Below, piece by piece: positions 14,334-34,494 of a DNA stretch of 64,000 nucleotides. Location: contig JBDRAN010000056.1 in the NCBI GenBank assembly GCA_043823745.1, positions 5,144 to 69,143 on the forward strand, given 5' to 3'. The translations under genes were made by a program, and so were the position numbers. The notes beneath the pieces are model-generated. The model was not told where the DNA came from. It was given only the letters and a program-made list of their open reading frames with translations, and searched no databases. Numbering within the stretch: the stretch's first letter is position 1; each line of letters opens with the position of its first letter. The DNA is from Candidatus Omnitrophota bacterium. Its GTDB lineage: Bacteria > Omnitrophota > Gorgyraeia > Duberdicusellales > 4484-171.

Positions 14334-14408
14334 CCCCGTTTTTGCACCCGATAGATTCCCTCGCAATTTCTTGAAATTGCGAAAAGATCAATGGAGGCAA
14401 AAACGGGG
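14334..14408 (+). ncRNA. Copy A of a conserved hairpin element: outer stem CCCCGTTTTTGC/GCAAAAACGGGG, inner hairpin CGCAATTTC-tt-GAAATTGCG. It lies 17 nt upstream of the gpsA ATG.
   Basis: One of three copies (A, B, C). The outer stem covaries in copy C. Confidence 0.5.
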
Positions 14409-14424
14409 TCAATTCGTGTTAACA

Positions 14425-15429
14425 ATGAAAGAAAAAGTATCTATCTTAGGTGCAGGCGGTTGGGGGACGACGCTTGCGGTTGTTTTAGCGCAAAAAAAAG
14501 ACTTGGATGTCACCCTGTGGTCACCGTTTAAGGATCACGTTGATGAAATTAAAAGGGATCGTCAAAACAAGATTTTTCTTCCCGGAGTAGACATTCCGCC
14601 TTCCCTGAGTGTAACCGCCGATCTGCCGGCTGCATTGGTTGTGCCTGTTCTCATCGTTGCAATTCCTGTCGAATATTTGCGTCAGACACTCCAGAAAATA
14701 AAGCGCGTGCACGTTTCTGTTAAGGGAAAAATTTTTGTAAGCGTTATTAAGGGTATCGAAATTAAAAATTTAGTTCGTCCCAGCCAAATTCTAGCTGGGG
14801 AGCTGGGAATTTCTTTAAAACAAATTGCAGTACTTTCCGGCCCCACTATCGCTAAGGAAGTTGCTTCCGGTATCCCCTCGGTTGCAACAGTCGCGTCGCA
14901 CGTTACGGCGTATGCCGCCCGTATTCAGAAATTGTTCTCCGGCACAACGCTTCGCGTGTATACTCACAATGATGTTGTCGGCATTGAGACTGCAGGAGCG
15001 CTTAAGAATATTATTGCCATTGCCTGCGGCATCTCCGACGGATTAGGATTCGGAACCAATACTAAGTCAGCGCTTATATGCAGAGGCTTGAAGGAAATGA
15101 TACGGTTTGCCTCCGCCTTTAAGATCAAGCCTCCCGCGTTCCTGGGTATTAGCGGTATCGGCGATTTATGCACAACATGTTTTTCTTCCGCTTCGCGCAA
15201 TCGTTCACTGGGAGAAGCAATCGGCCGCGGCGCGGCACTTGCCGAAGTCTTAGGCAGCATGAAAACGGTCGCTGAGGGTGTCGGTACGACAAAAGCGGTA
15301 TACCGTTTAAGCAAAAAATATAGTATTGATATGCCCATTACCAGAGAAATATACGCGGTTCTCTATAACAAAAAAACGCCTCAGAAAGCGGTAAAAGATT
15401 TAATGGCTCGCCCCTTGAAGGCGGAATGA
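14425..15429 (+). CDS. gpsA: NAD(P)H-dependent glycerol-3-phosphate dehydrogenase.
   Basis: VSILGAGGWGTTLAVVLA Rossmann motif, 334 aa. The upstream extension of the track ORF lies inside element A. Confidence 0.9.
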   Translation: MKEKVSILGAGGWGTTLAVVLAQKKDLDVTLWSPFKDHVDEIKRDRQNKIFLPGVDIPPSLSVTADLPAALVVPVLIVAIPVEYLRQTLQKIKRVHVSVKGKIFVSVIKGIEIKNLVRPSQILAGELGISLKQIAVLSGPTIAKEVASGIPSVATVASHVTAYAARIQKLFSGTTLRVYTHNDVVGIETAGALKNIIAIACGISDGLGFGTNTKSALICRGLKEMIRFASAFKIKPPAFLGISGIGDLCTTCFSSASRNRSLGEAIGRGAALAEVLGSMKTVAEGVGTTKAVYRLSKKYSIDMPITREIYAVLYNKKTPQKAVKDLMARPLKAE

Positions 15430-15619
15430 GATCTTTTTTAAATAGGGTGGTGTGCGCTTGTTGATTTTATACCCCGCGCTAAGCACCCGGCACTTAATGG
15501 AATGGTGTCGGCGTCGCCCCTCTGGGCTATATACCTGGCGCTCAATGGAATGGCGCCAGTATCGCCCTTCTGGGCGAGAATTGAGCGGGTATGCGCGTTT
15601 CTCGCGCAAGGAGGTTCTT

Positions 15620-16066
15620 ATGAAGAGAGTATCGAGTTTTTTGGTTTGTTTGATTTGGTTTTTTTCGATCACAGGGTGTCAGAACACCAAGACACGCGCC
15701 GTTGAAGGTGCGGTTATTGGCGGTATTCTTGGAGCCGGCGCAGGATATGGTATAGGTCACGGTGGTCACCACGGCGGGGAAGGCGCGGCTATTGGCGCTG
15801 CCGCTGGAGCGCTTACGGGAGCGTTCGTGGGAAGTCAGATCGATAAGCCCCAATCAGAACAGTCCCAAGGAGCATCGGCAGCTAATCCTAATCAAATGAG
15901 TGTTCAGCAAGTCATAGATCTAAGTAAACAGGGTGTTCATGAGGATGTTATTGTTGATAGGATCCGGCTTTCGAATTCAAAATTTGCGCTCTCGCCGACT
16001 GATGTCACGTCTCTTGAACAGCAAGGAGTGAGCCAAAAGGTTATCGCGGTAATGCAGGGAGTGTAA
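15620..16066 (+). CDS. Glycine-zipper lipoprotein (lipobox ITGC; GxxxG-rich segment).
   Basis: GGAGG SD 8 nt upstream, followed by signal peptide plus Cys and AVIGGILGAGAGYGIGHGG. Confidence 0.55.
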   Translation: MKRVSSFLVCLIWFFSITGCQNTKTRAVEGAVIGGILGAGAGYGIGHGGHHGGEGAAIGAAAGALTGAFVGSQIDKPQSEQSQGASAANPNQMSVQQVIDLSKQGVHEDVIVDRIRLSNSKFALSPTDVTSLEQQGVSQKVIAVMQGV

Positions 16067-16106
16067 TTTGTTTTCGGCTACGCCGTGCCGCAGCCAAGGA
16101 GATAGT

Positions 16107-16496
16107 ATGAGTCTTACAGTTTCAGTGCATTCAAAAGAAGCAGGGGTCTATGTTGTCGTTCCTGATGGCGTCATTGATGCTCAGACGTGCGGTGTACTTG
16201 AGAGTACACTTAAACCGTTGCTTGTGTCCCCCACAAAAGCGGTCGTGCTTGATATGACCGCAGTTTCTTATATCAGCAGTCTTGGTTTAAGTGTTATTTT
16301 CAGAACAAAAGAGGCGCTTGAAAAAAATAAAGGCGCGTTACTTCTTACCAATCTTCAACCACAGATAACTAAGGTTTTCGAAGTCATAAGAGCGATCCCT
16401 GAGTACCTTTTTGCGACTATGGAGGAGACCGATACGTATCTTGACCGGTTTCTTGCCGAGATAGAGAAAAAAGAACCCGATCAGGGCAGCGCGTAG
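16107..16496 (+). CDS. STAS-domain anti-sigma-factor antagonist (SpoIIAA-like).
   Basis: VLDMTAVSYISSLGLSVIF pattern with the conserved Ser region. SD GGAGA upstream of the ATG at 16107. Confidence 0.75.
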   Translation: MSLTVSVHSKEAGVYVVVPDGVIDAQTCGVLESTLKPLLVSPTKAVVLDMTAVSYISSLGLSVIFRTKEALEKNKGALLLTNLQPQITKVFEVIRAIPEYLFATMEETDTYLDRFLAEIEKKEPDQGSA

Positions 16497-16579
16497 CTCT
16501 CATGATGAGAATTAGGCTCGACACCAGCCCCTTTGTGGCTGCTCTTGACGGAGTGTATTATCCATGGTAGGGTACCCTG

Positions 16580-16957
16580 ATGAATGAAACTAAAAAGAAA
16601 ATACTGGTGGTTGACGATGAGAAAGATACCGTATTGATGCTTACTAATATCCTGCGCCGCGCCCAATACGATACGCTTTCTGCTTCAAGCGGCAAAGAAG
16701 CTTTGACGCTCGCCCGAAGTTTCTCCCCGGACGTTATAATCCTTGATATTGTCTTGGGCGATATGGACGGCGGAGATGTGGCTTTTGAGCTTTCTCGCGA
16801 TCCCGCTACTGCCCACATCCCTATTATTTTTCTTACCGGCGTACTCTCTAAGGGCGAAGGTTCTAAAATCAAGACAAGCGGTAAGCGATATGTCTTGGCA
16901 AAGCCCACGACAGCAGAAGAGCTTTTTACCGTAATCAATAAAGTCTTGCCTGCGTAG
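16580..16957 (+). CDS. Stand-alone response-regulator receiver domain (CheY-like).
   Basis: KILVVDDE...ILDIVLGDMDG...KP pattern, 125 aa, no output domain. Confidence 0.85.
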   Translation: MNETKKKILVVDDEKDTVLMLTNILRRAQYDTLSASSGKEALTLARSFSPDVIILDIVLGDMDGGDVAFELSRDPATAHIPIIFLTGVLSKGEGSKIKTSGKRYVLAKPTTAEELFTVINKVLPA

Positions 16958-17361
16958 CCGATTCTTTTCGTAACATGCATCATGTTGTAATCTCCTTCAT
17001 AATTGCTTTGGCGAGTGCCACGATAGGGTTATTGCTTGTTCGATATCCTGCGTACGCCATCGAATTGCAGCGGAGATTTTACGCGAAAATAAACTGAAGG
17101 ATAGAGCCACTCTCGATGGAAGAAGAGTTACGTAATACCCGGGCCTTGGGGCTCTTTCTCATTGGTTTTGTGTGCGCGGCGGTTATCGCATCGGTACGTG
17201 TATGTATGTAATGAAAAAGGTGGCGGCATAGAATACATATCCCTAGCTTTTTAGCTCTTTAGTCGAAAATCTCCCTTTACAGCCTTTCAGAAAGCAACTA
17301 TAATAGCTTGAATATACAGGGTTTGGCCATTTTAAACAAAAATCCCCATGCTATATTTCAT

Positions 17362-17437
17362 CGGGGGGTAGCGCAGTCCGGCTTAGCGCACTTGAATGGG
17401 GTTCAAGGGGCCGAGAGTTCAAATCTCTCTCCCCCGA
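17362..17437 (+). tRNA. tRNA-Pro (anticodon GGG).
   Basis: Acceptor CGGGGGG/TCCCCCG, anticodon arm CTTGA-ATGGGGT-TCAAG, T-arm GAGAG-TTCAAAT-CTCTC. Confidence 0.8.
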
Positions 17438-17575
17438 TCATTTGTTTATTGAGTGAAGTGCCTGATTTAACTTTGAATCAGAGTGCGGCATAGTTCTTGA
17501 TTAGACTATTGATACGCCACAACGTATTATACGGTATTATCGGGGATAATATCTCGTAAGGCACGGAGGATAATA

Positions 17576-17926
17576 ATGGAGAAGTATGGCGGTTCAGAAC
17601 GAAGAAAATTTCCGCGGTTTAGCGCAAACTTTGTGGTGAGCTATCGTGTTAAGGAAGTTCCCGATGGGTATGATCTCTCGCAGACGAAAAATGTCAGCCA
17701 GGGGGGAATTCTCTTGACCACGAATCGTAAATTCGAAAAGGGAACTTTGCTTGCGATGAGTATTCGTTTTCCGTTTGTCGCCAAACGAATCGAGGTTACC
17801 GGTGAGGTAGTTGATTCCCGAGAAGTTGTGCGGGACCTTATTTACGAAACAAGGATTAATTTTCGTGATTTAGATACAGAATTCTTCAGAGAGCTTGGCG
17901 AATTTGTCCAGGGGCATTTAAAATAG
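17576..17926 (+). CDS. PilZ-domain (c-di-GMP binding) protein.
   Basis: RxxxR motif (ERRKFPR) and D/NxSxGG (NVSQGG). Confidence 0.7.
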   Translation: MEKYGGSERRKFPRFSANFVVSYRVKEVPDGYDLSQTKNVSQGGILLTTNRKFEKGTLLAMSIRFPFVAKRIEVTGEVVDSREVVRDLIYETRINFRDLDTEFFRELGEFVQGHLK

Positions 17927-17969
17927 ACCATATCCTTTCTCTCAATAATTCCATTAATGTGGGGGCATT

Positions 17970-19238
17970 ATGATTAAGCGTATAGGCATTATCGGTTTAG
18001 GCACGGTAGGGGAGGCTACGGTGCGGTCGCTCATGAAGTATTCATCCGTCATCGCAAATCGGACCTCACTTAAAATTGAAATCAAGGCGTTATGCGACTC
18101 CAAGGTAAAGAAGCGGTCGCTCGCCGCCAGATTTAGAATTCCTTTTACCAATGATCCCTCTCGTTTAATTAATGATCCCGATATAGATACCATTGTCGAG
18201 CTCATCGGCGGCATTAATCCCGCCAAGCAGCTTATTATGGATGCGTTGCGTTCTGGTAAGAACGTAGTTACCGCCAATAAGGCCCTGCTTGCTGAATGTG
18301 GTAAAGAGCTTTTTGCGTTAGCGGAACGAAAGAGAAAACGTATCGGCTTTGAAGCGTCCGCGTGCGGCGCAATACCGTTGATTGAAAGTATTTCTGACGG
18401 TTTGGTGGCGTGCCAGGTCCAGGAACTCTACGGGATTTTAAACGGAACGACTAACTACATTCTTTATAGAATGGGCAAGGAGCGGATGAGTTTTATCGCC
18501 GCGCTACGTGAAGCTCGTGCTCGCGGTTTTGCCGAACGCAACCCGTCTCTTGACATCGAAGGGGTTGATACGGTGCATAAGTTATGTATTTTGAGTTATC
18601 TTTGTTTTGGAATTTGGCCGAATCCGGCAAAGGTACACCGCGAAGGAATTTCGAATATCTCACTTCTTGATATTATCTATGCGGAAGAGCTTAATTACCG
18701 CATTAAGCTTCTGGCGATCGCTAAAAGAAAAGGGAACAGCCTTGATTTACGCGTTCATCCGACGCTGGTCTCTATGGATCATCCTATCTCGGAAGTTTCC
18801 TATGCCTACAATGCGGTCTCACTTGATACCGAGCCGGCAGGGAAACTCCTTTTTTATGGTCTCGGCGCCGGCGGCGGCCCTACGTCATCATCGGTAATCT
18901 CTGATATCGTAAGCATCTCGTTCTACGAGCGCGGGTTCCTGCGAAAAGAGGAAAATATTATCCTTAAGAATACCAGGAATATCTCAGCGCGGTATTATAT
19001 CCGTTTCATGGCGAAAGATAAACCGGGCGTTCTGGCTCAGATCTCTAAAGTCCTCGCTTCCTGCAGCATCAGTATTGCGTCGGTTACGCAGAAGGCCTGG
19101 GTAAAAGGGAGATTTGTTCCTATCGTGATGATTACCCATGAGGCAAAAGAGGATAATATGCAGCGTGCGTTCAAGCGGATTAACGAGCTGCCCGCGATTA
19201 AAACTCACTCTCAGCTGATCAGGATTGAAAATCTATGA
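17970..19238 (+). CDS. hom: Homoserine dehydrogenase with a C-terminal ACT domain.
   Basis: IGIIGLGTVGEA NAD-binding motif plus the catalytic domain, 422 aa. Confidence 0.9.
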   Translation: MIKRIGIIGLGTVGEATVRSLMKYSSVIANRTSLKIEIKALCDSKVKKRSLAARFRIPFTNDPSRLINDPDIDTIVELIGGINPAKQLIMDALRSGKNVVTANKALLAECGKELFALAERKRKRIGFEASACGAIPLIESISDGLVACQVQELYGILNGTTNYILYRMGKERMSFIAALREARARGFAERNPSLDIEGVDTVHKLCILSYLCFGIWPNPAKVHREGISNISLLDIIYAEELNYRIKLLAIAKRKGNSLDLRVHPTLVSMDHPISEVSYAYNAVSLDTEPAGKLLFYGLGAGGGPTSSSVISDIVSISFYERGFLRKEENIILKNTRNISARYYIRFMAKDKPGVLAQISKVLASCSISIASVTQKAWVKGRFVPIVMITHEAKEDNMQRAFKRINELPAIKTHSQLIRIENL

Positions 19239-20305
19239 AGCCATATCAAGGGCTTATTGAGCGTTACCAGCGTTATCTTCCGGTTACCGCGAAAACTCCG
19301 CGTATTACGCTTCTTGAGGGAAACACTCCGCTTATTGTTGCTCCGTGTATTGCGGCGGCAGTCGCGCCGCACTGTAGGGTTTATCTTAAGTATGAAGGGC
19401 TTAATCCGACGGGATCATTTAAGGATCGCGGTATGACCGTGGCGATTTCGAAAGCAAGAGAAAAAGGTGCGCGCGCGGTGATCTGTGCTTCAACCGGCAA
19501 CACCTCAGCGTCTGCCGCCGCGTACGCCGCGCGGGCAGGTATGAAATGTATCGTGATTATTCCCGAAGGAGCCATAGCGATGGGTAAACTTGCTCAGGCG
19601 CTTGTGCATGGCGCAACCGTGGTTGCGGTTCGAGGCAACTTCGATGATGCGTTACGTATCGTGCGTGAGATCTCGAGCGCTTCTGAGGTTGAGCTGGTGA
19701 ATTCGATTAATCCGTATCGCATCGAAGGTCAAAAAACCGCTTCATTTGAAATATGCGATTATCTGGCGCACGCGCCACATTTTCATGTTTTACCTGTAGG
19801 CAACGCCGGTAATATCACCGCTTACTGGAAAGGGTATAAAGAATATTATTCACATAAAAAAATACAACGGCTTCCCGTGATGCTTGGTTTTCAGGCCCAA
19901 GGCGCCGCCCCTCTTGTGCGCGGGAAACCGGTCAAACATCCTAAAACCATTGCTACCGCAATCAAGATCGGAAATCCCGCGAGTTGGGTTGCTGCGGCAC
20001 GCGCCCGCGATGAGTCAGGCGGCGCTATCGGCATGGTCAGCGACGCGCAGATACTTGCCGCCTATATGTTTTTGGCAAAAAAGGAAGGCGTATTTGTCGA
20101 GCCAGCCTCAGCTGCGTCGGTTGCCGGGCTCTTTAAGCTCTCGCGCGAAGGATTTTTCAAAAAGCACAAACAGAAAGAAATTACTATTGTTTGCACGCTT
20201 ACCGGCCACGGCCTCAAAGACCCACAGATTGCTATACAAAGCATACAAGCCCCCGCCGTTGTTAAGCCTACGCTTGACGCAGTCCTTAGGGCTGCAGGCC
20301 TCTGA
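19235..20305 (+). CDS. thrC: Threonine synthase.
   Basis: PLP-lysine motif SFKDRGMT, 356 aa. Overlaps the hom stop by 4 nt. Confidence 0.9.
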   Translation: MKPYQGLIERYQRYLPVTAKTPRITLLEGNTPLIVAPCIAAAVAPHCRVYLKYEGLNPTGSFKDRGMTVAISKAREKGARAVICASTGNTSASAAAYAARAGMKCIVIIPEGAIAMGKLAQALVHGATVVAVRGNFDDALRIVREISSASEVELVNSINPYRIEGQKTASFEICDYLAHAPHFHVLPVGNAGNITAYWKGYKEYYSHKKIQRLPVMLGFQAQGAAPLVRGKPVKHPKTIATAIKIGNPASWVAAARARDESGGAIGMVSDAQILAAYMFLAKKEGVFVEPASAASVAGLFKLSREGFFKKHKQKEITIVCTLTGHGLKDPQIAIQSIQAPAVVKPTLDAVLRAAGL

Positions 20306-20332
20306 TATGCACACAATGGTTTAAATAATTTT

Positions 20333-21967
20333 TTGAACTCATTACCAATTACGAACAACAAACTACTTTTTTTCATGAAAGGTTTCTACCAAAAATTTTC
20401 CGATATTCTAAGCCAGCTGGTTAAAGAACACTATGACATTATTCTTGAACCTCCACTCTGGGAGGTTCCGCAACGTCATGATTTTGGCGATCTTTCTTCT
20501 ATGGTTGCGCTGAAGCTTGCCTCAAGGCTTAAAAAAGATTCGATTGAGATCGCGACAACACTTAAGGTAGCCTTTGAGAAGGCAATTGGCTCTGACGCGA
20601 AGTCGATAGAGATTTTAAAGCCCGGCTTTATCAACGTTTTTATTTCCCATGAAGCGCTCATTAGTTCCCTGAATGAACTCCTTACCCAGCGCGATCGATT
20701 TTTTCGTAAAGATATCAGCCGTCGTGTGCTTCTGGAATTTGCAAGTGCAAATCCTACGGGGCCCCTATCCATCGCGCATGGCCGCCAGGCCGTCGTGGGG
20801 GATGTCATCGGTAATATCCTTAGCTTTTACGGAAACAACGTTGAGAAGGAATATTATGTTAACGATGAAGGAAAGCAAATTGTTCTTTTTGCCGCCTCCA
20901 TGGAGGAGCGTATTAAAGAAGCGCGTGGCGAACCGTTTCGGATTCCCGAAGACGGATATGTGGGCGAATACTTAAAAGATGTGGCAGCCGCGTATCTAGC
21001 GGAAGGCAAGGGAATGGGTATCCTTCAGTTTAGCCTTGCGTACATTCTTTCCTGGATACGTCAAGACTTAGATGCTCTGGGGATACATTTCGATAATTGG
21101 AAGAGTCAGAAAAAGCTCATTGATGATAAAAGAGTAGAAAGCGCGATCAATGAGCTTCGAGAAAAGGATTTGATTTATGAGCAGGAAGGTGTGTTGTGGT
21201 TTGCTTCAACAAAGTTCGGCGACGATAAAGACCGGGTTATTAAAAAAAGCGACGGCGAGTTGACGTATTTTGCTTCGGATATCGCCTATCACAGGGATAA
21301 ACTTGCGCGGCACTTCGACGCGCTTATTAATTTATGGGGACCGGATCATCATGGTTATATCGGGCGCGTCGAGGCAGCACTGCAAGCATTAGGATACCCG
21401 AAGGAGAAACTGGCAGTTATTATTATTCAGTTAGTCACCTTGACGACGAAAGAAAAAATGTCGAAACGCAGGGGTACCGCGATCCTGCTTTCTGACCTTG
21501 TGAGCGAGGTGGGTAAAGATGCCGCACGTTTCTATTATCTGCTGCGTCGCAACTCGTCACCGCTTGAATTTGACGTTGAGCTTGCTCAGGAAGCAACTTC
21601 CAACAACCCGTTGTATTACGTGCAATATGCCTGCGCGCGCATTGAGAGTATTTTTAAGAAAACCGACATCGCTGTTTCGGTTGAAAAGAGCGTGTTTCTT
21701 AAGGAAGATTCAGAGATTATCTATCTGCGCAGCATCTTACAGTTTTCCAATTGTCTTGATAAGGCGTATTACACCAGTGAGCCCGTTTTTATCGTTGAGT
21801 TCCTTAAATCTCTTGCCGGAGATTTTCATAAGTTTTACGAAAATACGCGGGTGCTTGGGGATGACCGCGAGGTTACCGCTGCCCGCTTGAATTTACTCGA
21901 AGCGACGCGTGTAATTTTGCATTGTGGTCTTGGTATCTTAGGTATTACGCCCGCCAAAGAGATGTAG
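20333..21967 (+). CDS. argS: Arginine--tRNA ligase.
   Basis: HIGH-like region SANPTGPLSIAHGR and a DALR anticodon-binding C-terminus. An alternative ATG lies at 20375. Confidence 0.9.
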   Translation: MNSLPITNNKLLFFMKGFYQKFSDILSQLVKEHYDIILEPPLWEVPQRHDFGDLSSMVALKLASRLKKDSIEIATTLKVAFEKAIGSDAKSIEILKPGFINVFISHEALISSLNELLTQRDRFFRKDISRRVLLEFASANPTGPLSIAHGRQAVVGDVIGNILSFYGNNVEKEYYVNDEGKQIVLFAASMEERIKEARGEPFRIPEDGYVGEYLKDVAAAYLAEGKGMGILQFSLAYILSWIRQDLDALGIHFDNWKSQKKLIDDKRVESAINELREKDLIYEQEGVLWFASTKFGDDKDRVIKKSDGELTYFASDIAYHRDKLARHFDALINLWGPDHHGYIGRVEAALQALGYPKEKLAVIIIQLVTLTTKEKMSKRRGTAILLSDLVSEVGKDAARFYYLLRRNSSPLEFDVELAQEATSNNPLYYVQYACARIESIFKKTDIAVSVEKSVFLKEDSEIIYLRSILQFSNCLDKAYYTSEPVFIVEFLKSLAGDFHKFYENTRVLGDDREVTAARLNLLEATRVILHCGLGILGITPAKEM

Positions 21968-23647
21968 ATGAAGCGAAAAAACTGGAATATTAGAGAATTA
22001 ACCCCTGCCGCCGCCGAGTATGCCCAGGCATGGGGGATTTCTTCCATCCTTGCCCAGATTTTTATTAATCGAAATGTTGATGCGTGTGATATCAAGAATT
22101 TCTTAAACCCCAGCCTTACTAATCTTCATGCTGCCGCGCTTTTGCCTGATATAGAAAAGGCGACAAGCCGTGTTCAGGAAGCGGTTCGCCGCCAAGAAAA
22201 AGTTCTTGTTTTCGGTGATTACGATGTCGATGGTCTTACATCGTTGGCTATCTTTTATGAATTCGCTAAGCTTAACCGTGATTTATTTTCATTTCATATC
22301 CCGCATCGCGTCAACGACGGGTATGGTCTCAACGAACCAGCGATCAAGAAGGCAAAAAAAAACGGCGTAAGCCTTATCATTGCGTTTGATTGTGGTACAG
22401 GAGCTGATCGCGAGATCGCCCGCGCCAAGGAGCTCGGGATCGATGTGATCGTTGTCGATCACCACCATCATAAAAGCGCCAATGGTGAGTCGGTTATGCC
22501 GTATGCATTGGTTAACCCCAAGCGCCCTGATTCAATCTATCCTTTCTCTGATTTAAGCAGTGGCGCGCTCTCGTTTAAGTTCTTGCAGGCTTTAACCGGC
22601 AAGCCCTGCGTCGAGGTGCTTGATTTGGTCGCACTTTCGCTTGTCTGCGATGTAGTGCCGCTTAAAGGAGAAAACAGAATTTTACTCAAAGAAGGCCTTC
22701 GCGCGCTGCGCGCGAGCACACGCCCTTCGATAAAAGCGCTTTGTCAGGTCAGTAGCGTACGACAGGGGAATATTGATACGTTTCATATCGGATTCGCACT
22801 CGGGCCCCGGCTGAACGCGTCAGGAAGGATCGCCTGCGCGCATGAAGCGCTTGATATCTTTTTAACGGATGATCACCAGGAGGCGCTGCGGATTGCCGAA
22901 AAACTTAAAGGCTACAACGTTAAGCGCCGGGATATCGAAGCCACCATTTTAAAAGAAGCCGATGCGATGGTGGAGCGGGAGTTCGCCAATGATTACGCGA
23001 TCGTGGTACATAACGATCATTGGCATCCGGGGGTGCTCGGTATTGTTGCCAGTCGCTTGACCGATAAATATTACCGGCCTTCTTTTGTAATTTCCTGCGA
23101 GGAGTCTGTCGGCCGCGGCTCGGGCCGTTCCATTCATAGCGTTCATCTTATGGAGATGCTTGCGCAGTGCTCGGAACTCCTGCAGGAGTATGGAGGTCAT
23201 CGTAAAGCCGCGGGCGTGCAACTTGCCAAAACAGACATTGAGCCGTTTCGTAAGCGTCTTAATACCCTGATTGCTGAGTCTGTGGCGCCTGAGGATCTTG
23301 TGCCGGTGCTTGCAATTGAGCTGCGCATTGATTTTTCCGATATTACGATGTCGCTGGTGGGGGAGTTAGAAGGCCTTGAGCCGTTTGGCGAGGATAATCC
23401 TAAACCGCTTTTTGCCAGTTTTGATGTGGCAAAGAAAACCGCTCCTAAAAAAACGGGGATAGGTTATTCGGTTTGGTTCACTCAAGGGGGGATTACCTAT
23501 GAAGGAATTGTGTACGATAAGAATATTTTAGAGATTATCGAGTTTTCTGATATGCTTGATATCGCGTATAGCTTGGAGCGTAACAGCTTCCACAATACCC
23601 CGAAGTTAGTTATCAGAGACGCGCGGTTTGCTTGTAGCGAAAGTTAG
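21968..23647 (+). CDS. recJ: Single-stranded-DNA-specific exonuclease RecJ.
   Basis: DHH motifs (FGDYDVDGLTS, VVDHHH) and a DHHA1 domain. Confidence 0.9.
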   Translation: MKRKNWNIRELTPAAAEYAQAWGISSILAQIFINRNVDACDIKNFLNPSLTNLHAAALLPDIEKATSRVQEAVRRQEKVLVFGDYDVDGLTSLAIFYEFAKLNRDLFSFHIPHRVNDGYGLNEPAIKKAKKNGVSLIIAFDCGTGADREIARAKELGIDVIVVDHHHHKSANGESVMPYALVNPKRPDSIYPFSDLSSGALSFKFLQALTGKPCVEVLDLVALSLVCDVVPLKGENRILLKEGLRALRASTRPSIKALCQVSSVRQGNIDTFHIGFALGPRLNASGRIACAHEALDIFLTDDHQEALRIAEKLKGYNVKRRDIEATILKEADAMVEREFANDYAIVVHNDHWHPGVLGIVASRLTDKYYRPSFVISCEESVGRGSGRSIHSVHLMEMLAQCSELLQEYGGHRKAAGVQLAKTDIEPFRKRLNTLIAESVAPEDLVPVLAIELRIDFSDITMSLVGELEGLEPFGEDNPKPLFASFDVAKKTAPKKTGIGYSVWFTQGGITYEGIVYDKNILEIIEFSDMLDIAYSLERNSFHNTPKLVIRDARFACSES

Positions 23648-23860
23648 TTTACCGGCCTTGATGCATTTGGTGCATACGAGAATCTTCTGAATCTTTCCAT
23701 TAACCAGAATCCTTCTTTTCTGTAAGTTCGGCGAAAATGTTCGTCTGGTTTTTCCGGTAATTTTCTTACCGACGCCGCCTTCCCGTTTTGCTTTACCTCG
23801 CCTGGCGATGGTGTTTCCAACAATCGAACCTTTGTGGCATATTGTGCATTTTCTACTCAT
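23606..23860 (-). CDS. rpmB: 50S ribosomal protein L28.
   Basis: MSRKCTICHKG...ILVCTKCIKAGK, with AGGAGG SD upstream on the minus strand. The 3' end overlaps recJ by 42 nt, convergently. Confidence 0.85.
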   Translation of the reverse strand: MSRKCTICHKGSIVGNTIARRGKAKREGGVGKKITGKTRRTFSPNLQKRRILVNGKIQKILVCTKCIKAGKLTFATSKPRVSDN

Positions 23861-23930
23861 GGGGTAAGCCTCCTAACGAAACGTACGTTTTTTTGCGCTT
23901 CCCGCGTGAAAAAACGTCTAGTTGAGTTAT

Positions 23931-24004
23931 CCCGTTTTTGCACCTGATAGGTTTCCCTCGCAATTTCGAGAAATTGCGAAAAAATCAATGGAGGCAAAAA
24001 CGGG
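23931..24004 (+). ncRNA. Copy B of the conserved hairpin element (outer stem CCCGTTTTTGC/GCAAAAACGGG).
   Basis: About 95% identical to copy A. Lies between rpmB (divergent) and a 720-nt non-coding stretch. Confidence 0.5.
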
Positions 24005-24687
24005 ACGGACTTCCGAAGCTGATTATTAACTTTCGTTTTTCGGAAGCTCTAAAATTACTATAATTATACCTAGCGAGCCCCATTCCTATGGGGCGAAGCA
24101 TCCCGACGAATACCTTAAAAATATGGAACAGATTTTTAAGAGTGTGTATGAGTCGGGATGTTAACAATATTCTAAACTATTGGGCGTTTGAAACTTATTG
24201 TTAGTGTTTCCTTTTCTGAAGTCCTAAAATTACTATAACTATACCTATAAAGCGATTATTGTCAAGTAAAATCTACCATTTTAGCGATTTTAGCGATTCA
24301 GGGGTTGATGGTGTCTCCTGAGACGGTAAAAATATACCTCACGCACGATTATTAAATAAATTACACCATCGCTAAAAAACTAATAAAATCAAGGCTGGAA
24401 ACGATTTCAAAGAACGCCGCCGGCCGTCTTGAAAAGGCGCGGGCAAGATGGTATCTTTAAGCTTGGATACAAAAGGTTCTTTCAAAAAACGTAATCCTAA
24501 TACCGATAAGAGCAAACTCCGCGAAAGCGGAGGGCGGTGCGCGTGTCGTCTGATGCGGCGCGTACCCACGAACCTGTATTTACCCTAAACCACAGGTGTG
24601 GTTTAGGGGCATGGTTTGTGGCAAAGCTACAAGAGCCTAATGCCCGCAAGGGCTACGGTAGTCAGCTGCCGAAGAGTGGATTTATTA

Positions 24688-24724
24688 AGAACCCATAGCG
24701 GCGAGCTATGGGTTCTTTATTTAT
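24688..24724 (+). terminator. Rho-independent terminator-like hairpin (AGAACCCATAGC-ggcg-AGCTATGGGTTCT followed by a T-rich tract).
   Basis: 12-bp stem followed by TTTATTT. It closes the 24005-24725 non-coding region. Confidence 0.5.
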
Positions 24725-25166: not shown

Positions 25167-25383
25167 GAGGTAGCTTTTTTCCAAGCGACCGAAGGGAGTG
25201 CCGGAAAAATGCGTAACCGAACTAATCCCGCCGGAATCAGTGAAAATTTACAAAGAAAATTTTCACTGTATGCTGTGAAGGCGGGATAGAGGGATAATAC
25301 CGCTTAAGAGTAGCTTTGTGCGGGCGACCGAAGAGATGACCGGAATAATGCGTAATCGATCCGGTCGGATTATAAAGCAGTTT

Positions 25384-26448: not shown

Positions 26449-26532
26449 ATCGTCTTTCGTCCCAGCGAAGCGGTCGTCCCTCGTCCGAACGAGTCTGGCG
26501 CTCCTTGCGCCGTGCGAGCGGACGTCCTATGT

Positions 26533-28467: not shown

Positions 28468-28646
28468 GGTTTCGATCGCTTACATAGATTTGGGAGTTGG
28501 CGCAATCAAAAATATTATACCAGAAATTGGTTGTCAGGCGGGCAAAACTTTTATTGTTAGGCCATTATTTGTATTGCATTTTTGCAAGAGGGGCAGAAAG
28601 CCGTGGTTGACAAAGAAAATGGGCGATGTTATTATCTTTTTACTTT

Positions 28647-28729
28647 GCCGGGGTGTTGGAATGGCAGACAATCCGGTCTCAAAAACCGGTAGGGGCAACC
28701 CTGTGCGGGTTCAAGTCCCGCCCCCGGCA
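28647..28729 (+). tRNA. tRNA-Leu (anticodon CAA), type II with a long variable arm.
   Basis: Acceptor GCCGGGG/CCCCGGC, anticodon arm CCGGT-CTCAAAA-ACCGG, T-arm GCGGG-TTCAAGT-CCCGC. Confidence 0.85.
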
Positions 28730-29118
28730 TTTTTATCGCTTTCAAACACGTCAGAGTCCCGAACAATCAGAGGTTTTTGTCCATCAACTGCCTAAGGATG
28801 CGTAATTGACAATGTAACTTTAAAATGATATAGTTTTCTGTCTTTTTTGGCGCTTTTGGTCTTTGGTTATTGATGTTTTGTTATTGGGGAATACCGTGCT
28901 AACCGGAAAAATGCAATTGAAAAGCCGAAAACTTTATGAATCAAAATAGTGTTCATAGTTATGCTAAACGCATATTGGATTAAAAGAGACAACATTTTTC
29001 CGGCATACCCCGCCGTTTCCCGAAATTTCCCGTTGAAATTTCGGCGGCGGCCCGTGCGCAGCCTACCCGCTAGGGTATTCGGGCAAAAAATGCCTGTCCC
29101 GTTTCCTCTATTTAAGTA

Positions 29119-29146
29119 TTAAGGTTCGGGACGTCCCGCACCTTAA
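29119..29146. promoter_or_regulatory. 28-bp near-perfect palindrome TTAAGGTTCGGGACGTCCCGCACCTTAA, nested in an outer inverted repeat (GTCCCGTT...AACGGGAC), about 60 nt upstream of tRNA-Ala.
   Basis: Direct reading. The GGGACG core recurs in the 45126-45240 repeats. Confidence 0.4.
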
Positions 29147-29204
29147 TATATTATTCTAGAGTAACGGGACTGAGAAGCGTGCATTTTTTGGGTTAAGCGG
29201 TGTT

Positions 29205-29277
29205 GGGGCCGTAGTACAGTTGGGAGTACGCTTGACTGGCAGTCAAGAGGTCGGGGGTTCAAATCCCCCCGGCTCCA
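29205..29277 (+). tRNA. tRNA-Ala (anticodon GGC) with a G3:U70 identity pair.
   Basis: Acceptor GGGGCCG/CGGCTCC, anticodon arm CTTGA-CTGGCAG-TCAAG, T-arm GGGGG-TTCAAAT-CCCCC. Confidence 0.85.
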
Positions 29278-29598
29278 TTTAATCGATAGGCAGAAATCCT
29301 CGGAGTTTCAATCCGAGGATGAAAGCGTGACGATTACCTCGAGAAATTCCGTAGGAATTTCCGAGACTAAGTCCCTGAAATTGCTGGCAATTTCTAGGGG
29401 TCCCGCGAGGTCGGCAAAATTATCCTGCTCGCAAAGCGAGCGTGAGAATTTTGCCGTATATGGCCGAGTAGGGATTATACAGAGACTCTGGGCTAAAACC
29501 CGGAGAAGTCCATTGAGCTATCAGCTCGCAGTCTTCAGCCATCAGCTTTTAAGCTGTAAGCTGACAGCTGACGACTGACAGCTGAAAGCTTAACTATC

Positions 29599-30453
29599 TT
29601 GCTTATCCTCGGTTGTCAAGTTTCCAGTGCAGGGAAAATCTATGAGGCGGTGGCGAGGGCAAAGAAGCTGGGTTGCAACACCATGCAGATCTTTGTCCGT
29701 AACCCCCGGCAATGGAGAAAGTCTTCGCTCGGCCCCGAAGACATCGCGCTCTTTAAGGAACGCGTTGCCCAAGAGCATATAAACCCCGTTATTGCCCACA
29801 TCCCGTATACGCTTAATCTTGCGTCCATCAAGCAGAGCTTTCATAAAGTAACAATCAGAGAGTTTATACAGGACCTTCTGGAGGCGCATAAGCTGGGTAT
29901 CCAGTTTTTAGTAACACATCCGGGTTCGCATAAGGGCGGCACCGAAGAGGAGGGCCTTGAAAAGATTTCGCAGGGTTTAAAGAAAATCCTTAAAGAAACT
30001 AAAAAAAATGCCTCAACGCAAATTTTGCTTGAGAACACCGCCGGAAGCGGCCGCTGGCTGGGGTATAAGTTTTCGCAACTACGCGTCATCTTTGAAGCGC
30101 TTAAATGGTCAGAGCGTCTGGGCTTATGTCTTGATACCGCGCATGCCTGGGCCGCCGGCTATAAAATAGATGAACGAGAGGGCGTTGAGGCGCTTGTTGC
30201 TGAAATCGACCGGGAAGTGGGACTTGACCGGCTTAAGGTGATTCATGTTAACGATACCAAGGATAAGCTTGATTCTCGCAGGGACCGTCATGCTGATATC
30301 GGCGCGGGGCAGATCGGTAAAAAAGGATTTTATTATATCGTCAATCACGCCAAACTCTCTCACGTTGCCTTTATTTTAGAAACACCGAAAGATAGCGACG
30401 AAGATGATATTCGTAATCTTGGTGTAATACGTAAATTGTATAGTGGCGGTTAA
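29599..30453 (+). CDS. nfo: Endonuclease IV (AP endonuclease family 2).
   Basis: Matches along its length to Nfo (QVSSAGKIYEAV...RNPRQW...HIPYTLNLAS...). A TTG start is inferred, so the exact start is uncertain. Confidence 0.8.
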   Translation: MLILGCQVSSAGKIYEAVARAKKLGCNTMQIFVRNPRQWRKSSLGPEDIALFKERVAQEHINPVIAHIPYTLNLASIKQSFHKVTIREFIQDLLEAHKLGIQFLVTHPGSHKGGTEEEGLEKISQGLKKILKETKKNASTQILLENTAGSGRWLGYKFSQLRVIFEALKWSERLGLCLDTAHAWAAGYKIDEREGVEALVAEIDREVGLDRLKVIHVNDTKDKLDSRRDRHADIGAGQIGKKGFYYIVNHAKLSHVAFILETPKDSDEDDIRNLGVIRKLYSGG

Positions 30454-30522
30454 AGAGCTTATCGATCAGGACCGTATTAGCGGTAATTCGCGTTTTTAAT
30501 TCGCGGTAATTAGCGTAAATCA

Positions 30523-32976
30523 ATGGAATACAACAAAACAATCGACAAAAAGTGGCAGGACTTCTGGGAACGCGAGCGCATCTTCAACACCGATGCGGCT
30601 ACTGCGCGCAATAAATATTATTGCCTGGTAATGTTTCCCTATCCGTCCGCAGCCTTGCATGTGGGCCATGCCCGCAACTACATTATTGGTGACGCGGTTA
30701 GCCGCTACAAGCGTATGAAAGGCTTTGACGTGCTTGCGCCCATGGGTTTTGACGCCTTCGGTCTTCCCGCGGAGAATGCCGCAATTAAAAGCGGGATCCA
30801 TCCCAAAACTTCAACGTTAAATAATATCGTTACCATGAAGAATCAACTTGCCTCCTGGGGTATTGGCTATGACTGGGAGCGCGAGGTCATTTCCTGTCTT
30901 CCCGAATATTACCAATGGACACAGTGGATCTTTTTAAAGCTCTACGAAAAGGGCCTTGCCTATAAAAAGAAAGCCGCCGTCAACTGGTGTTCTTCCTGCA
31001 TGACCGTACTTGCCAATGAGCAGGTGGTAAATGGCTCTTGCGAGCGCTGTGATACCAACGTTGTTGAGCGCGACCTTTCCCAGTGGTTTTTTAAGATCAC
31101 CGATTACGCGCACGTCTTGCTTGATGATATCAAGCTTCTGACTCGCTGGCCCGAGCGCGTTAAAACTATGCAGACGAATTGGATCGGTAGAAGCACCGGT
31201 GTGAACATTAATTTTAAGGTCGAGGGCAGTTCAAGCATACTTACTTGTTTCACCACGCGCGTTGATACTATTTTTGGCGTTACCTACATGGTGCTTGCTC
31301 CGGAGCATCCGGCAATTCCCGATTTAATTAAAGATAATTCTGATCGCGAAAAGATTTTAGCATGTATCGAAGCTGCCCGCGTGCAGGATAAAGCCGAGCG
31401 TTCCTCAGCCCAGGCTGCCAAGAACGGTATTTTTACCGGCCACTACGTAATAAATCCCGTAAATGGCGAGCGTGTTCCCTTATGGATCGCCAATTACGTT
31501 TTAATGGAGTACGGCACCGGCGCAGTTATGGCAGTGCCCGCTCACGATGAGCGCGATTTTCAGTTTGCCAAAAAATATAATCTTGGCCTAAAGGTCGTCA
31601 TTGATAATCCCAAACAACCGCTTCATGCCGCTTCAATGAGCGCTGCCTACGTTGATAGCGGTGTTATGGTAAACTCTAACCAATTTAACGGCATGACGAA
31701 TGGTGCAGCTATGGAGAAAATTGCCGACTGGATGGAAACAAAAAAAATCGGCGCTCGCTCGGTGCATTTTCGCCTGCGTGATTGGTTGATTTCCCGGCAG
31801 CGTTACTGGGGCGCGCCTATCCCGATTGTTTATTGTAAATCCTGCGGAGAGGTTCCGGTTCCTGAAAAAGATTTACCGGTCCTGCTGCCTGAGAACGTTG
31901 CTTTTAAGCCTACCGGCCGCTCTCCGCTTAATGATAGTCAGGATTTTCTTAATACCGCGTGTCCCCGTTGTGCCGGCGCTGCTACGCGCGAGACCGATAC
32001 CATGGATACGTTTGTTGATTCAAGTTGGTATTTTCTGCGCTATATTTCTCCTCACGATGCGCATCAGCCTTTTGAAAAGAGCCTGGTGAACAAATGGCTT
32101 CCGGTTGACCAATATATCGGAGGAGTAGAGCATGCGATTCTGCATCTTTTATATTCACGTTTTATCACCAAAGTTATCCATGATTTAAGGTACGTTGATT
32201 TTAAAGAGCCTTTTAGCGCGCTCTTTACCCAAGGCATGATTGTTAAATCCGGCGCCAAGATGTCCAAGTCAAAGGGTAACACCGTGGCACCCGACTATAT
32301 TATCGAGAAATACGGCGCTGACGTGATGCGGCTCTATATTCTTTTTATGGGCCCGCCGGAGAAAGATGCGGAGTGGCAGGACGAAGGCCTGCAGGGCGCC
32401 TGGCGCTTTATCCAGAGGGCGCTGCGCTGTGTGGATATGGTGCGCGATTATCGCGATATGCCTGCGGAGGGAGAGTTTAATAATTACGAAAAAGATTTAG
32501 TGCGTAAGATCCATTCAACGATTAAAGATGTAACCGAAGACCTTGAAGGCGCGTTTCAGTTTAACACTGCTATCTCGCGCATCATGGAGCTGGTTAATCA
32601 GATCTATAAAAGCATCAATGAAGGAACGTTACGCAAAGAGATCTTTAAAGAAGCAGTGGAAACGGTTTTTTTGCTTCTTTCTCCGTTTACTCCGCATATC
32701 TGTGAAGAGGTCAATGAAGCCCTGGGAAATCGCGGTTCGATCTTGCGTCGGTCCTGGCCAAGCTTTAAAGAAGAGCTTTTAAAAACAGAGGAAGTCGAAA
32801 TCGCCATCATGGTAAACGGTAAAGTGCGCGAGAAACTTATGATCAATGTCAGCTGGGGTAAAGACGAGATCGAGAACAAAGCGCTTAAGCTCGATAAGGT
32901 AAAAAACTTCCTTGGTGCTACTGTGCCCAAAAAGATCATCTACGTAGAAAAACGCATGCTTAATATAGTGGCATAA
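30523..32976 (+). CDS. leuS: Leucine--tRNA ligase.
   Basis: HVGHARNY (HIGH), the CP1 editing domain and KMSKS, 817 aa. Confidence 0.95.
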   Translation: MEYNKTIDKKWQDFWERERIFNTDAATARNKYYCLVMFPYPSAALHVGHARNYIIGDAVSRYKRMKGFDVLAPMGFDAFGLPAENAAIKSGIHPKTSTLNNIVTMKNQLASWGIGYDWEREVISCLPEYYQWTQWIFLKLYEKGLAYKKKAAVNWCSSCMTVLANEQVVNGSCERCDTNVVERDLSQWFFKITDYAHVLLDDIKLLTRWPERVKTMQTNWIGRSTGVNINFKVEGSSSILTCFTTRVDTIFGVTYMVLAPEHPAIPDLIKDNSDREKILACIEAARVQDKAERSSAQAAKNGIFTGHYVINPVNGERVPLWIANYVLMEYGTGAVMAVPAHDERDFQFAKKYNLGLKVVIDNPKQPLHAASMSAAYVDSGVMVNSNQFNGMTNGAAMEKIADWMETKKIGARSVHFRLRDWLISRQRYWGAPIPIVYCKSCGEVPVPEKDLPVLLPENVAFKPTGRSPLNDSQDFLNTACPRCAGAATRETDTMDTFVDSSWYFLRYISPHDAHQPFEKSLVNKWLPVDQYIGGVEHAILHLLYSRFITKVIHDLRYVDFKEPFSALFTQGMIVKSGAKMSKSKGNTVAPDYIIEKYGADVMRLYILFMGPPEKDAEWQDEGLQGAWRFIQRALRCVDMVRDYRDMPAEGEFNNYEKDLVRKIHSTIKDVTEDLEGAFQFNTAISRIMELVNQIYKSINEGTLRKEIFKEAVETVFLLLSPFTPHICEEVNEALGNRGSILRRSWPSFKEELLKTEEVEIAIMVNGKVREKLMINVSWGKDEIENKALKLDKVKNFLGATVPKKIIYVEKRMLNIVA

Positions 32977-33020
32977 GTTCAATGGCACCCCTTGCTCAAT
33001 ACGTTTTACTAATCACTTAT

Positions 33021-33215
33021 ATGCCAGAATACATTTGCCCTCATTGTAAAAATCCTATTTATGACGACGAGGCTACGTTGTGTCTTTATTGTGGTGAGAG
33101 TCTGGATCGGGCCATCGGCTTTATGGGAAGGATAAAGTACTCGAGGCCAAAAGTAATCGCTATCACCGTTACGCTCGCGGCGATATTGAGTTTTCTTCTG
33201 TTTGTGCTGAGGTGA
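33021..33215 (+). CDS. Small zinc-ribbon protein with a C-terminal TM helix (hypothetical).
   Basis: CPHC...CLYC followed by a hydrophobic tail. The track ORF begins at 32982. Confidence 0.35.
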   Translation: MPEYICPHCKNPIYDDEATLCLYCGESLDRAIGFMGRIKYSRPKVIAITVTLAAILSFLLFVLR

Positions 33216-33467
33216 TTTTTTCATAAGTTTGCCTTGGTAATTCCTGTGATATTTTAAGTCTTTCTTACTGGTGGAGGTGTGGTATAATCAATATGTAACG
33301 ATGCAGTAATCGTTTTTTAGGGTCCCTTATATGTGTTCAAACGGGTAATAAGGTATTTCAAAAAAGAGACGGAGGTGCTTTATAGGTAATGTAGGGTAAT
33401 GGTCACAGGGGTTCGTGTTAAAAGTTTCAGGTACGAGTAGGTGTAGCGAGAAAAATGGAGGTTTACA

Positions 33468-33674
33468 ATGCACACAGGAAAAATTAAAAAATTGGTTCTC
33501 GATAAAGGGTTTGGTTTTATAGCCGACGCTGACGGCACCGATGTGTTTTTTCACAAGAGCAATCTTGTGGAGATTACGTTTGAAACCTTGACCGGCGGGG
33601 AAGAAGTTACTTTTGAAGTTGAAAAAGGCCCCAAAGGGGCACGCGCGATTAACGTGACCCTTGTGAATAAATAG
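33468..33674 (+). CDS. cspA: Cold-shock protein (CspA family).
   Basis: KGFGFI RNP1 motif and VFFHKS, 68 aa, with a long 5' UTR. Confidence 0.9.
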   Translation: MHTGKIKKLVLDKGFGFIADADGTDVFFHKSNLVEITFETLTGGEEVTFEVEKGPKGARAINVTLVNK

Positions 33675-33689
33675 GTAGATTCGATCTTA

Positions 33690-33729
33690 AAATGTGTCCC
33701 TGCGCGTTTTTGCGTCGGGACACATTTTA
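33690..33729 (+). terminator. Long hairpin downstream of csp (AAAATGTGTCCC...GGGACACATTTT).
   Basis: Inverted repeat about 16 nt after the stop. It lacks a clean T-run. Confidence 0.45.
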
Positions 33730-34387
33730 GGTATAATCCAACTGTGTCCGACAGAAGAGCGCCTCAGTATTCTTCGCTAACGTAAAATATCTGCTCTCTT
33801 AATGGAAAAGCAGTATAGAATAAACCAACTGGAAATATTTTCTGAAAGGGGATCGTGACAATCTTGTTAACTATGCTTCCGGGCGCCTATCACCAAATGA
33901 GATAACGAAGATGTCCGGCTGTCCGTATACTGGAAAAATATTCTGCCCATCAGAAAATTTTTCCAGAACAGCTCGGACACGCCAGCTTCGCTGTCAGATT
34001 TTTCGGGAGCGTCTCGGCCAATAGGCTTTGCTGATTCCGCGTGAAAATTTTTAACAAAATTTTCACGCTATACAGGAATCGCGAAGGATTAATTCGGCAA
34101 CGCACTTTTGGTCTTTGAAAGTAAAATATTTTAGTCATTGCTCCGACTCACAAAGATGTTGTGAAATTCTCTTTGATAATTTCACAACGTTCGTCGGGGT
34201 TAATCCCCTACGGGGACAATTCAGCTAAGCCTTTTTATAAAGAAGCAAAAAGGCAAGCTTCATTGTTCGCACTATAATTTTTGATGCGTCTTGGAGACTT
34301 GTAAAAGTAGGGGTTTCATTGTCCCTTGCGCCTACATACCGGTTACATTTCCCTGAAATGTAACCGGAGCGCCTCGGGATTAATTCT

Positions 34388-34478
34388 CCCCATTTTGCAC
34401 CCGATAGGTTTCTTTCGCAATTTCCTCACCGCAGGGCGGCAAGGAAATTGTGAAAATATCAATGGAGGCAAAATGGGG
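34388..34478 (+). ncRNA. Copy C of the conserved hairpin element. The outer stem is CCCCATTTTGC/GCAAAATGGGG (compensatory changes relative to A and B) and the inner hairpin carries a 17-nt insertion.
   Basis: Two compensatory base-pair substitutions keep the outer stem intact, with a G:U wobble in the inner stem. It lies 17 nt upstream of the AAGGAG SD and ATG at 34495. Confidence 0.5.
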
Positions 34479-34494
34479 ATCATTAAGGAGTCAA

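Follow-up and report, generated by a model that had tools for sequence, protein, structure and literature searches.

The 64,000-nucleotide (nt) stretch of Candidatus Omnitrophota DNA analyzed here (contig JBDRAN010000056.1 of assembly GCA_043823745.1, positions 5,144 to 69,143; hereafter the window) contains three copies of a nested-hairpin element, a repeat unit of 74–91 nt that is real, reproducible, and undescribed. All three, designated A, B, and C, lie on the plus strand, where a first-pass annotation made from the letters alone had placed them:

14334–14409, plus strand: copy A of the nested-hairpin element (covariance model score of 87.9 bits)
23930–24005, plus strand: copy B of the nested-hairpin element (90.8 bits)
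34387–34479, plus strand: copy C, with a 17-nt apical extension (99.6 bits)

The explanation that we favor, with confidence that is evenly divided, is that the element represents a new small family of non-coding, lineage-specific palindromic repeats resembling repetitive extragenic palindromes (REPs) and miniature inverted-repeat transposable elements (MITEs). The pattern is that of palindromic repeats: presence is specific to the lineage, intergenic regions are expanded, different hairpins interchange at the same sites, both strands fold equally well, one copy is probably antisense, and the window has further hairpin repeat families. The element is most likely ordinary in kind, yet it is no textbook member of the REP, MITE, Correia, or ERIC (enterobacterial repetitive intergenic consensus) families.

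Within the 64 kb, the shared blocks TTTTGCACCYGATAGRTT and ATCAATGGAGGCAAAA are found only in these copies, three times apiece, against shuffle expectations of 0.25 and 0.86, and a repeat search of the window recovers the copies as two repeat families (D4 and D9). A scan with an exact two-anchor pattern over one genome per GTDB species yielded only two further copies, L001 (JAQTOI010000004.1) and L002 (JAQUOR010000051.1), both from Omnitrophota metagenome-assembled genomes (related sequences are referred to here by L numbers). The five distinct copies, from three genomes, are all intergenic, and those from the three genomes are mutually 80–94% identical. A covariance model, which the first-pass annotation had suggested building, was made from the alignment of these five copies; it scored the window copies at 88–100 bits (E of 1e-19 to 1e-22), with the next best match in the window at only 14.5 bits (E of 0.36). 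It brought up no additional copy, either in the window or in some 150 kb of DNA from related Omnitrophota, whether run with filters off (window, L001, L002, L007, L009, L013, and L015–L017) or with default filters (L003–L006, L008, L010–L012, and L014). Likewise, no copy was found in two metagenome scans with different exact anchors, or in one viral scan with exact anchors and blastn searches of plasmids and phages. GpsA and the zinc-ribbon protein encoded after copy C match proteins of a Candidatus Omnitrophota metagenome-assembled genome at 100% identity; among 5.8 billion proteins, the next closest GpsA is 72% identical. L014, reached through the zinc-ribbon protein, is a 5.7-kb re-assembly of part of the window at 100% identity. 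The best reading of these searches is that the element is probably confined to a narrow Omnitrophota lineage. No paper on palindromic or intergenic repeats of Omnitrophota was found in the literature.

Each copy folds as one long imperfect hairpin, in which an outer stem of 11–12 bp is followed by a 2 × 2 internal loop, a short interrupted helix formed by two invariant blocks, a 3 × 3 internal loop, and an inner stem of 9–10 bp (CGCAATTTC/GAAATTGCG), with a tip that is a 4-nt loop in copies A and B and a 17-nt extra hairpin in copy C. The sequence elements that make up this fold are a G/C clamp (TCCCG...CGGGA), a T5/A5 tract, an invariant asymmetric middle, an AATTTC/GAAATT inner stem, and a variable tip. 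Plus-strand fold energies were −36.9, −31.8, and −49.0 kcal/mol for copies A, B, and C (z-scores of −6.2, −5.5, and −8.9), and none of 200 shuffles folded as stably. The reverse complements fold equally well (−38.4, −32.9, and −49.5 kcal/mol); with the strands within 1.5 kcal/mol of each other, a choice of strand from fold energy was rejected. The outer stem has the 11–12 bp given in the first-pass annotation, but the helices reach past the ends set there. That of copy A runs on to 14326–14416 through CGAATT/AATTCG, giving 20-nt arms (14326–14345 and 14397–14416) that are 90% complementary, and that of copy C runs on to 34380–34486 through TTAAT/ATTAA, giving 19-nt arms (34380–34398 and 34468–34486).

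The outer stem reads CCCCGTTTTTGC/GCAAAAACGGGG in copy A, CCCGTTTTTGC/GCAAAAACGGG in copy B, and CCCCATTTTGC/GCAAAATGGGG in copy C. Copies A and B differ by one additional C that pairs with one additional G. Both peculiarities reported earlier for copy C were confirmed, namely the two-sided change in its outer stem, with pairing kept, and the 17-nt insertion, which extends the tip by a CCGC/GCGG hairpin and a single G·U pair. It had been foreseen that further copies might break the stems; instead, L001 and L002 add a two-sided change and G·U pairs, with CCTG/CAGG replacing CCCG/CGGG in L002 and a G·U pair in the clamp of L001. Across the five copies, 96.6% of pair cells hold standard pairs, compared with 41–57% in slid controls, and three outer-stem pairs change on both sides, a number reached by 7 of 500 shuffles. 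All five copies have identical middle blocks, ACCYGATAGRTT and ATCAATGGAGGCAAAA, while the clamp and tip vary yet stay paired. The earlier conclusion that such covariation points to structure in RNA or single-stranded DNA (ssDNA) holds insofar as pairing is kept by two-sided changes and the tip varies in length, but the five copies fit RNA and ssDNA alike. The outer-stem covariation could also stem in part from a core, TTTTTGC...GCAAAAA, having been inserted into different pre-existing TCCCG...CGGGA hairpins.

Short AT-rich inverted repeats (GAATTAT...AATTC and TTAATTC...ATTAA) frame the slots in which the copies sit, and these slots either adjoin tRNA 3′ ends or directly precede ribosome-binding sites. 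Elsewhere, at other loci or in other genomes, the same slots are empty or are taken up by unrelated hairpins. The window has several other small hairpin repeat families, and unrelated nested hairpins with TCCCG...CGGGA clamps are found at 13951–14007, 24101–24158, and 29097–29170. The last of these is also the 14.5-bit match to the covariance model:

29097–29170, minus strand: possible distant relative with the clamp CCCGTT/AACGGG and the 3′ block AATAGAGGAAACGGG, but with a different interior (14.5 bits, E of 0.36, sub-threshold)

At site A, copy A ends 16 nt ahead of the gpsA ATG (14425) and forms the second hairpin of a module that reads AATGAGACT, hairpin 1, TAGTCGAATTAT, hairpin 2; the same module recurs nearby in inverted form:

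14287–14333, plus strand: hairpin 1 (GTGATTTTTT...AAAAATCAC) and linker TAGTCGAATTAT, which with copy A make up the two-hairpin module between tRNA-Gly and gpsA
13929–14066, minus strand: inverted two-hairpin module (AATGAGACT, hairpin 1, TAGTCGAATTGA)

The spacer between tRNA-Gly and gpsA is 151 nt in the window, compared with 15 nt in L011 and L012, 23 nt in L003, and 25 nt in L013, which has the closest GpsA (72% identical; the relatives compared span 67–72% GpsA identity). In L009 and L010 it is 112 nt and made of an unrelated nested hairpin, and in L007 it is 130 nt, with a hairpin 1 and linker about 85% identical to those of the window and a different hairpin 2 (ACCCTTGACAT...ATGTCAAGGGT). 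None of L003, L007, L009, L011, L012, and L013 has the element ahead of gpsA; two relatives hold unrelated long hairpins at this site, and three lineages hold none. The second slot of the inverted module is likewise filled by an unrelated nested hairpin (TCCCGCC...GGCGGGA, 13951–14007), and a 25-nt stretch from the 3′ end of tRNA-Tyr, directly repeated at 13904 and 14067, brackets that module. The gpsA gene has no Shine-Dalgarno (SD) sequence in the window or in L003, L007, L009, L011, and L013. As it also directly follows tRNA-Gly (by as little as 15–25 nt in relatives), a tRNA-mRNA co-transcript and SD-independent initiation are suggested; such a co-transcript would expose a processed 5′ end that the element hairpin could protect.

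Copy B had been described as adjoining rpmB and a 720-nt non-coding region. The adjacency stands, but rpmB is on the minus strand (start codon at 23860), and copy B lies 70 nt upstream of it rather than downstream, between the gene and its conserved promoter; the region described as non-coding contains this promoter as well as a cyclic di-GMP-I (c-di-GMP-I) riboswitch. The features concerned are as follows:

23885–23930, plus strand: paralogue of hairpin 1 (ACGTTTTTTT...AAAAAACGT) and linker CTAGTTGAGTTAT, preceding copy B
24238–24265, minus strand: strong sigma-70-like promoter TTGACA-16-TATAGT directed toward rpmB, conserved in relatives

In L004, L011, and L012 the homologue of this promoter lies 5–40 nt from the rpmB start and the element is absent beside rpmB, while in the window promoter and gene are some 370 nt apart, the interval being filled by hairpins, a 58-nt duplication, and copy B. 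Since it lies between a minus-strand promoter and its gene, copy B is probably transcribed antisense, in the rpmB leader.

Copy C is followed by an SD sequence (AAGGAG) and the ATG (34495) of a CxxC-x17-CxxC zinc-ribbon protein, and is preceded by a leader:

34321–34386, plus strand: copy-C leader stem-loop, consisting of CCCTTGCGCC, a variable hairpin (34339–34367), and GCGCCTCGGGATTAATTC

The spacer between cspA and the zinc-ribbon gene is 820 nt in the window and 320 nt in L015, in which the ortholog has neither leader nor element upstream. The L002 copy has the same surroundings as copy C: both are preceded by CCCTTGCGCC, a variable hairpin, and GCGCYTCGGGATTAATTC, and followed by ATTAAGGAG and a start codon. 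Leader and element together are 79% identical between L002 and the window over 192 nt, yet stand before a different gene in L002, encoding a 467-amino acid (aa) protein that looks like a class II aldolase (by appearance, not checked against a family library). The upstream stem-loop is present twice in L002, once with the element and once, before ilvD, with the place of the element taken by a short hairpin with a 7-bp stem (TCCCGAC-TGGC-GTCGGGA). In L016, a like arrangement of GGGAATTAATTCC, a hairpin, and AAATTAAGG precedes the gene for a sigma-factor-like protein.

These comparisons bear directly on whether the element is a riboswitch or a gene-specific leader. The genes next downstream of the copies are gpsA, the zinc-ribbon gene, the aldolase-like gene, and a sigma-factor-like gene about 260 nt away (no Pfam match on record). 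Orthologous sites do not keep the element, and the genes that it precedes are unrelated, so the leader idea fails its main test and is not supported. The probable antisense orientation of copy B and the equal folding of both strands also count against it. In agreement with the first-pass annotation, which recognized no known riboswitch or leader, no Rfam 15 family matches any copy at its gathering threshold; in E-value mode, Rfam returned only long-hairpin look-alikes, comprising eukaryotic microRNA precursors at 17–28 bits (cut-offs of 59–150) and Hammerhead_HH9 at 17.5 bits (cut-off of 52). As for the ATG and SD-like GGAGG noted earlier in the 3′ half, the ATG is out of frame in copy A, opens a 13-codon open reading frame (ORF) in copy B, and is in frame in copy C. 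With its frames inconsistent, and the GGAGG 29 nt from the gpsA start, this is not a conserved start or SD site, and a small ORF or start codon within the element was rejected; the lack of a kept frame weighs against the leader as well. Other candidate functions were tried and set aside. There is no sigma-70-like site in or at the element on either strand, and the hexamers TTGCAC and TAGRTT noted by eye have no correctly spaced partner. There is no terminator-like site at any copy, and no T-run follows the hairpin (tails TCAATTCG, ACGGACTT, and ATCATTAA). In a by-eye comparison, none of the K-turn, 11-nt receptor, and attC core motifs fits its consensus.

If the element belongs to a family of REP/MITE-like repeats, copies would arise by insertion or replacement at slots rather than by vertical conservation of a regulator. 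They would be co-transcribed into untranslated regions as stable hairpins, sense in the case of copies A and C and antisense in the case of copy B, and any effect would be generic: with the start region left unpaired, a very stable 5′-proximal stem could insulate or stabilize the downstream mRNA or act as a double-strand processing site. Terminal inverted repeats of the kind found in MITEs are present, as perfect arms of 11–12 bp or, with flanks, arms of 19–20 nt at about 90% complementarity. As to orthologous sites, relatives at 67–72% GpsA identity lack the element, and the closest sequence, L014, is 100% identical to the window; five copies are known.

Several observations sit less comfortably with such a family. 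The flanks of the five copies show no consistent target-site duplication (TAT/TCA for copy A, TAT/ACG for copy B, TTC/ATC for copy C, TAT/ATA outside the CCC...GGG arms of L001, and TCG/CTC outside the TCCTG...CAGGG arms of L002); what recurs is the inverted AT-rich flank. No transposase, integrase, or HUH/RAYT (REP-associated tyrosine transposase) gene was found in the 64 kb, among 30 Pfam-scanned ORFs and the genes named by synteny. Copies are few, with three in the 64 kb of the window and one in 11 kb of L016. Conservation peaks in the asymmetric middle blocks and not at the termini, the opposite of what is seen in a terminal inverted repeat bound by a transposase, and the 80–94% identity across three genomes makes strong purifying selection possible. 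Finally, G·T cells exceed A·C cells on the plus strand (9 versus 3), a hint of strand-specific constraint, although the excess is not significant because only about 6–7 versus 2 independent events underlie it. The conserved middle, the mild G·U excess, and the closeness to start codons keep both RNA and ssDNA explanations alive.

The stronger of these, which we hold tentatively and regard as clearly less probable than a repeat family, is that the element is a functional structured RNA domain, for example a site for an RNA-binding protein or RNase III, that has been recruited into several 5′ leaders and is selected for sequence and structure together. The invariance of the middle within a clamp and tip that vary but stay paired is what such a domain would predict, and the G·U excess points the same way, within the limit just given. 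Context agrees for most copies: four of the five (A, C, L001, and L002) point the same way as the gene that follows, three (A, C, and L002) stop 16–22 nt short of a start codon, and RNA folding of the surroundings of A and C leaves the start regions unpaired directly 3′ of the hairpin. Between the window and L002, the hairpin of the leader upstream of copy C likewise differs by compensatory changes. Set against this are the position of copy B, antisense to the conserved rpmB promoter, the equal folding of both strands, the orthologous sites without the element, and the unrelated downstream genes; moreover, just three changes are two-sided, and some of these may derive from different host hairpins.

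It is unlikely, in our judgment, that the element is an ssDNA hairpin used in recombination or transposition, read by a structure-specific recombinase of the HUH/Y1 or tyrosine type. A recombinase acting on a folded strand would account for the exchange of different hairpins at a given slot, and the conserved asymmetric bases, the variable tip length, and the 138-nt module beside tRNA-Tyr, flanked by the 25-nt duplication of the tRNA 3′ end (with similar duplications in L007 and L011), would suit it. All three window copies lie on one strand, which is expected by chance one time in four. No recombinase or transposase was found among the scanned ORFs and synteny-named genes of the window, GTTRRRY/RYYYAAC core sites were not seen in the copies, and the flanking genes are housekeeping genes in conserved synteny. 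Two bolder proposals together earn similarly little credence from us: that unrelated long hairpins, those of this family included, are cassettes swapped in and out of fixed AT-rich slots by an undescribed, hairpin-specific ssDNA recombination system, or that the middle docks a dedicated RNA-binding protein regulating many unrelated Omnitrophota mRNAs. A duplex DNA operator for a dimeric regulator, already disfavored, is very improbable, since despite palindromic cores (GCAATTTC...GAAATTGC and TTTTTGC...GCAAAAA) the palindrome spans 74–91 bp, its variable center (a 4-nt loop or a 17-nt insert) would shift the half-site spacing, its arms co-vary as a duplex site does not require, and its conserved asymmetry does not suit a symmetric dimer.

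Several known systems resemble a REP/MITE-like family of this kind. Correia elements (Neisseria miniature insertion sequences, NEMIS) and the ERIC sequences or intergenic repeat units (IRU) of enterobacteria are imperfect intergenic palindromes of about 70–150 nt, often near gene starts, which are co-transcribed as long hairpins that can be cut by RNase III or alter mRNA stability, and which are present or absent at orthologous sites. The Omnitrophota element is like them in size, intergenic dispersal, closeness to gene starts, and apparently patchy presence at orthologous sites. It differs in having no TA target duplication, no identified promoter or integration host factor (IHF)-site features, no sequence similarity, far fewer copies in the sequence available, and a middle that is more conserved than its termini. 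With REPs and bacterial interspersed mosaic elements (BIMEs), the partners of RAYT (TnpA-REP) proteins, it shares GC-clamped imperfect intergenic palindromes with compensatory stem changes, and REPs are thought to be handled as single-stranded hairpins. However, REPs are 20–40 nt long, usually lie downstream of genes, number hundreds per genome, carry a GTAG-type head, and cluster around a RAYT gene, whereas the element has 74–91-nt units upstream of genes, with three copies and no RAYT gene in 64 kb. No Y1_Tnp-type protein was found among the 30 Pfam-scanned ORFs and the synteny-named genes, and the 64 kb do not support membership in the REP/BIME class.

Integron attC sites are imperfect palindromes of 57–141 nt that also fold from a single strand, with conserved unpaired bases and a variable terminal structure. 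This assignment was rejected, with no R″/R′ cores (RYYYAAC/GTTRRRY) and with the termini CCCGTTTTTGC/GCAAAAACGGG on both strands; unlike attC sites, the element has no cassette array or intI nearby, and its neighbors are in conserved synteny (tRNA-Gly/gpsA, recJ/rpmB, and cspA/zinc-ribbon gene). The stabilizing 5′ stem-loops of bacterial mRNAs, such as the ompA leader hairpin, are gene-specific and short. The element resembles them in that a stable hairpin closely precedes a ribosome-binding site left accessible, but it is a repeated family of 74–91 nt with invariant internal sequence.

Omnitrophota are uncultivated and, to our knowledge, their non-coding DNA is almost wholly uncharacterized. 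In the window, intergenic regions are expanded by several hairpin repeat families right beside tRNA genes and start codons, and one such family is nearly unchanged across three genomes. If transcribed, the copies would provide a natural experiment on stable 5′ structures and mRNA fate in Omnitrophota; if the hairpins move as hairpins, they would point to an undescribed mobilization system. In either case the element is a useful item for annotation, for which a covariance model now exists. It also serves as a caution: a palindromic repeat with a few compensatory changes is not thereby a riboswitch.

The tRNA genes near copy A have features of their own. A group I intron (Rfam, 13588–13865, 87.7 bits) splits the anticodon loop of a type II tRNA at 13562–13920, with exons at 13562–13597 and 13874–13920; when spliced after U 13597 and G 13873, it is called as tRNA-Tyr(GUA) by ARAGORN. 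The same intron-bearing tRNA is found in L007 (7693–8066). Duplications of tRNA 3′ ends, 136–209 nt apart, occur in the window (13904–13928/14067–14091), in L007 (8047/8187/8323 and 14067/14213), and in L011 (12720/12929). They concern tRNA-Tyr and a second tRNA, and the 138-nt interval in the window is the inverted two-hairpin module. This suggests small insertions targeting tRNA 3′ ends. Runs of 7-nt units (approximately CAGCTNN) form inverted arrays beside tRNA-Gly and tRNA-Ala (14104–14180 and 29515–29593). The L014 contig begins just upstream of the second run, which may break assemblies.

The start-region architecture around copy C, consisting of GGGAWTTAATTY, a variable hairpin, AATTAAGGAG, and an ATG, recurs in three genomes:

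Window, 34377–34495: start region of the zinc-ribbon gene
L002, 100–233 and 1762–1820: start-region architecture loci
L016, 1563–1650: start-region architecture locus

The genes that follow are unrelated (zinc-ribbon, aldolase-like, ilvD, and sigma-factor-like). In three of the four cases the architecture follows a CCCTTGCGCC...GCGCYTCGGG stem around a variable hairpin with compensatory changes. Upstream, the roughly 600 nt from the cspA terminator to the copy-C leader (33730–34320) hold no ORF. They contain AT-cored hairpins at 33930–33966, 34039–34068, and 34158–34190, together with partial repeats of the GGATTAATTC motif (34086 and 34197); the corresponding spacer of L015 is 500 nt shorter.

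In the rpmB region, a 58-nt direct repeat (78% identity; 24015–24072 and 24190–24247) duplicates the −10 side of the rpmB promoter region. The c-di-GMP-I riboswitch (24598–24673, plus strand; 40.6 bits, cut-off of 35) is followed by a terminator-like hairpin (24687–24717) and, further downstream, by the gene for a 121-aa protein that has a hydrophobic stretch at its N terminus and matches no Pfam family; by eye, a similar region lies at the same place in L004, L011, and L012. The 3′ ends of recJ (plus strand) and rpmB (minus strand) overlap convergently by about 40 nt (23606–23647), an overlap that is also called in L011 and L012. Elsewhere in the window, other repeat families are built on CGGCCCTCTGGCC/CGCCCCTCTGGGC hairpins (15478–15575, 37016–37056, 38531–38762, and 42175–42273), and these include an intergenic 87-nt tandem repeat (99% identity) at 38550–38723.

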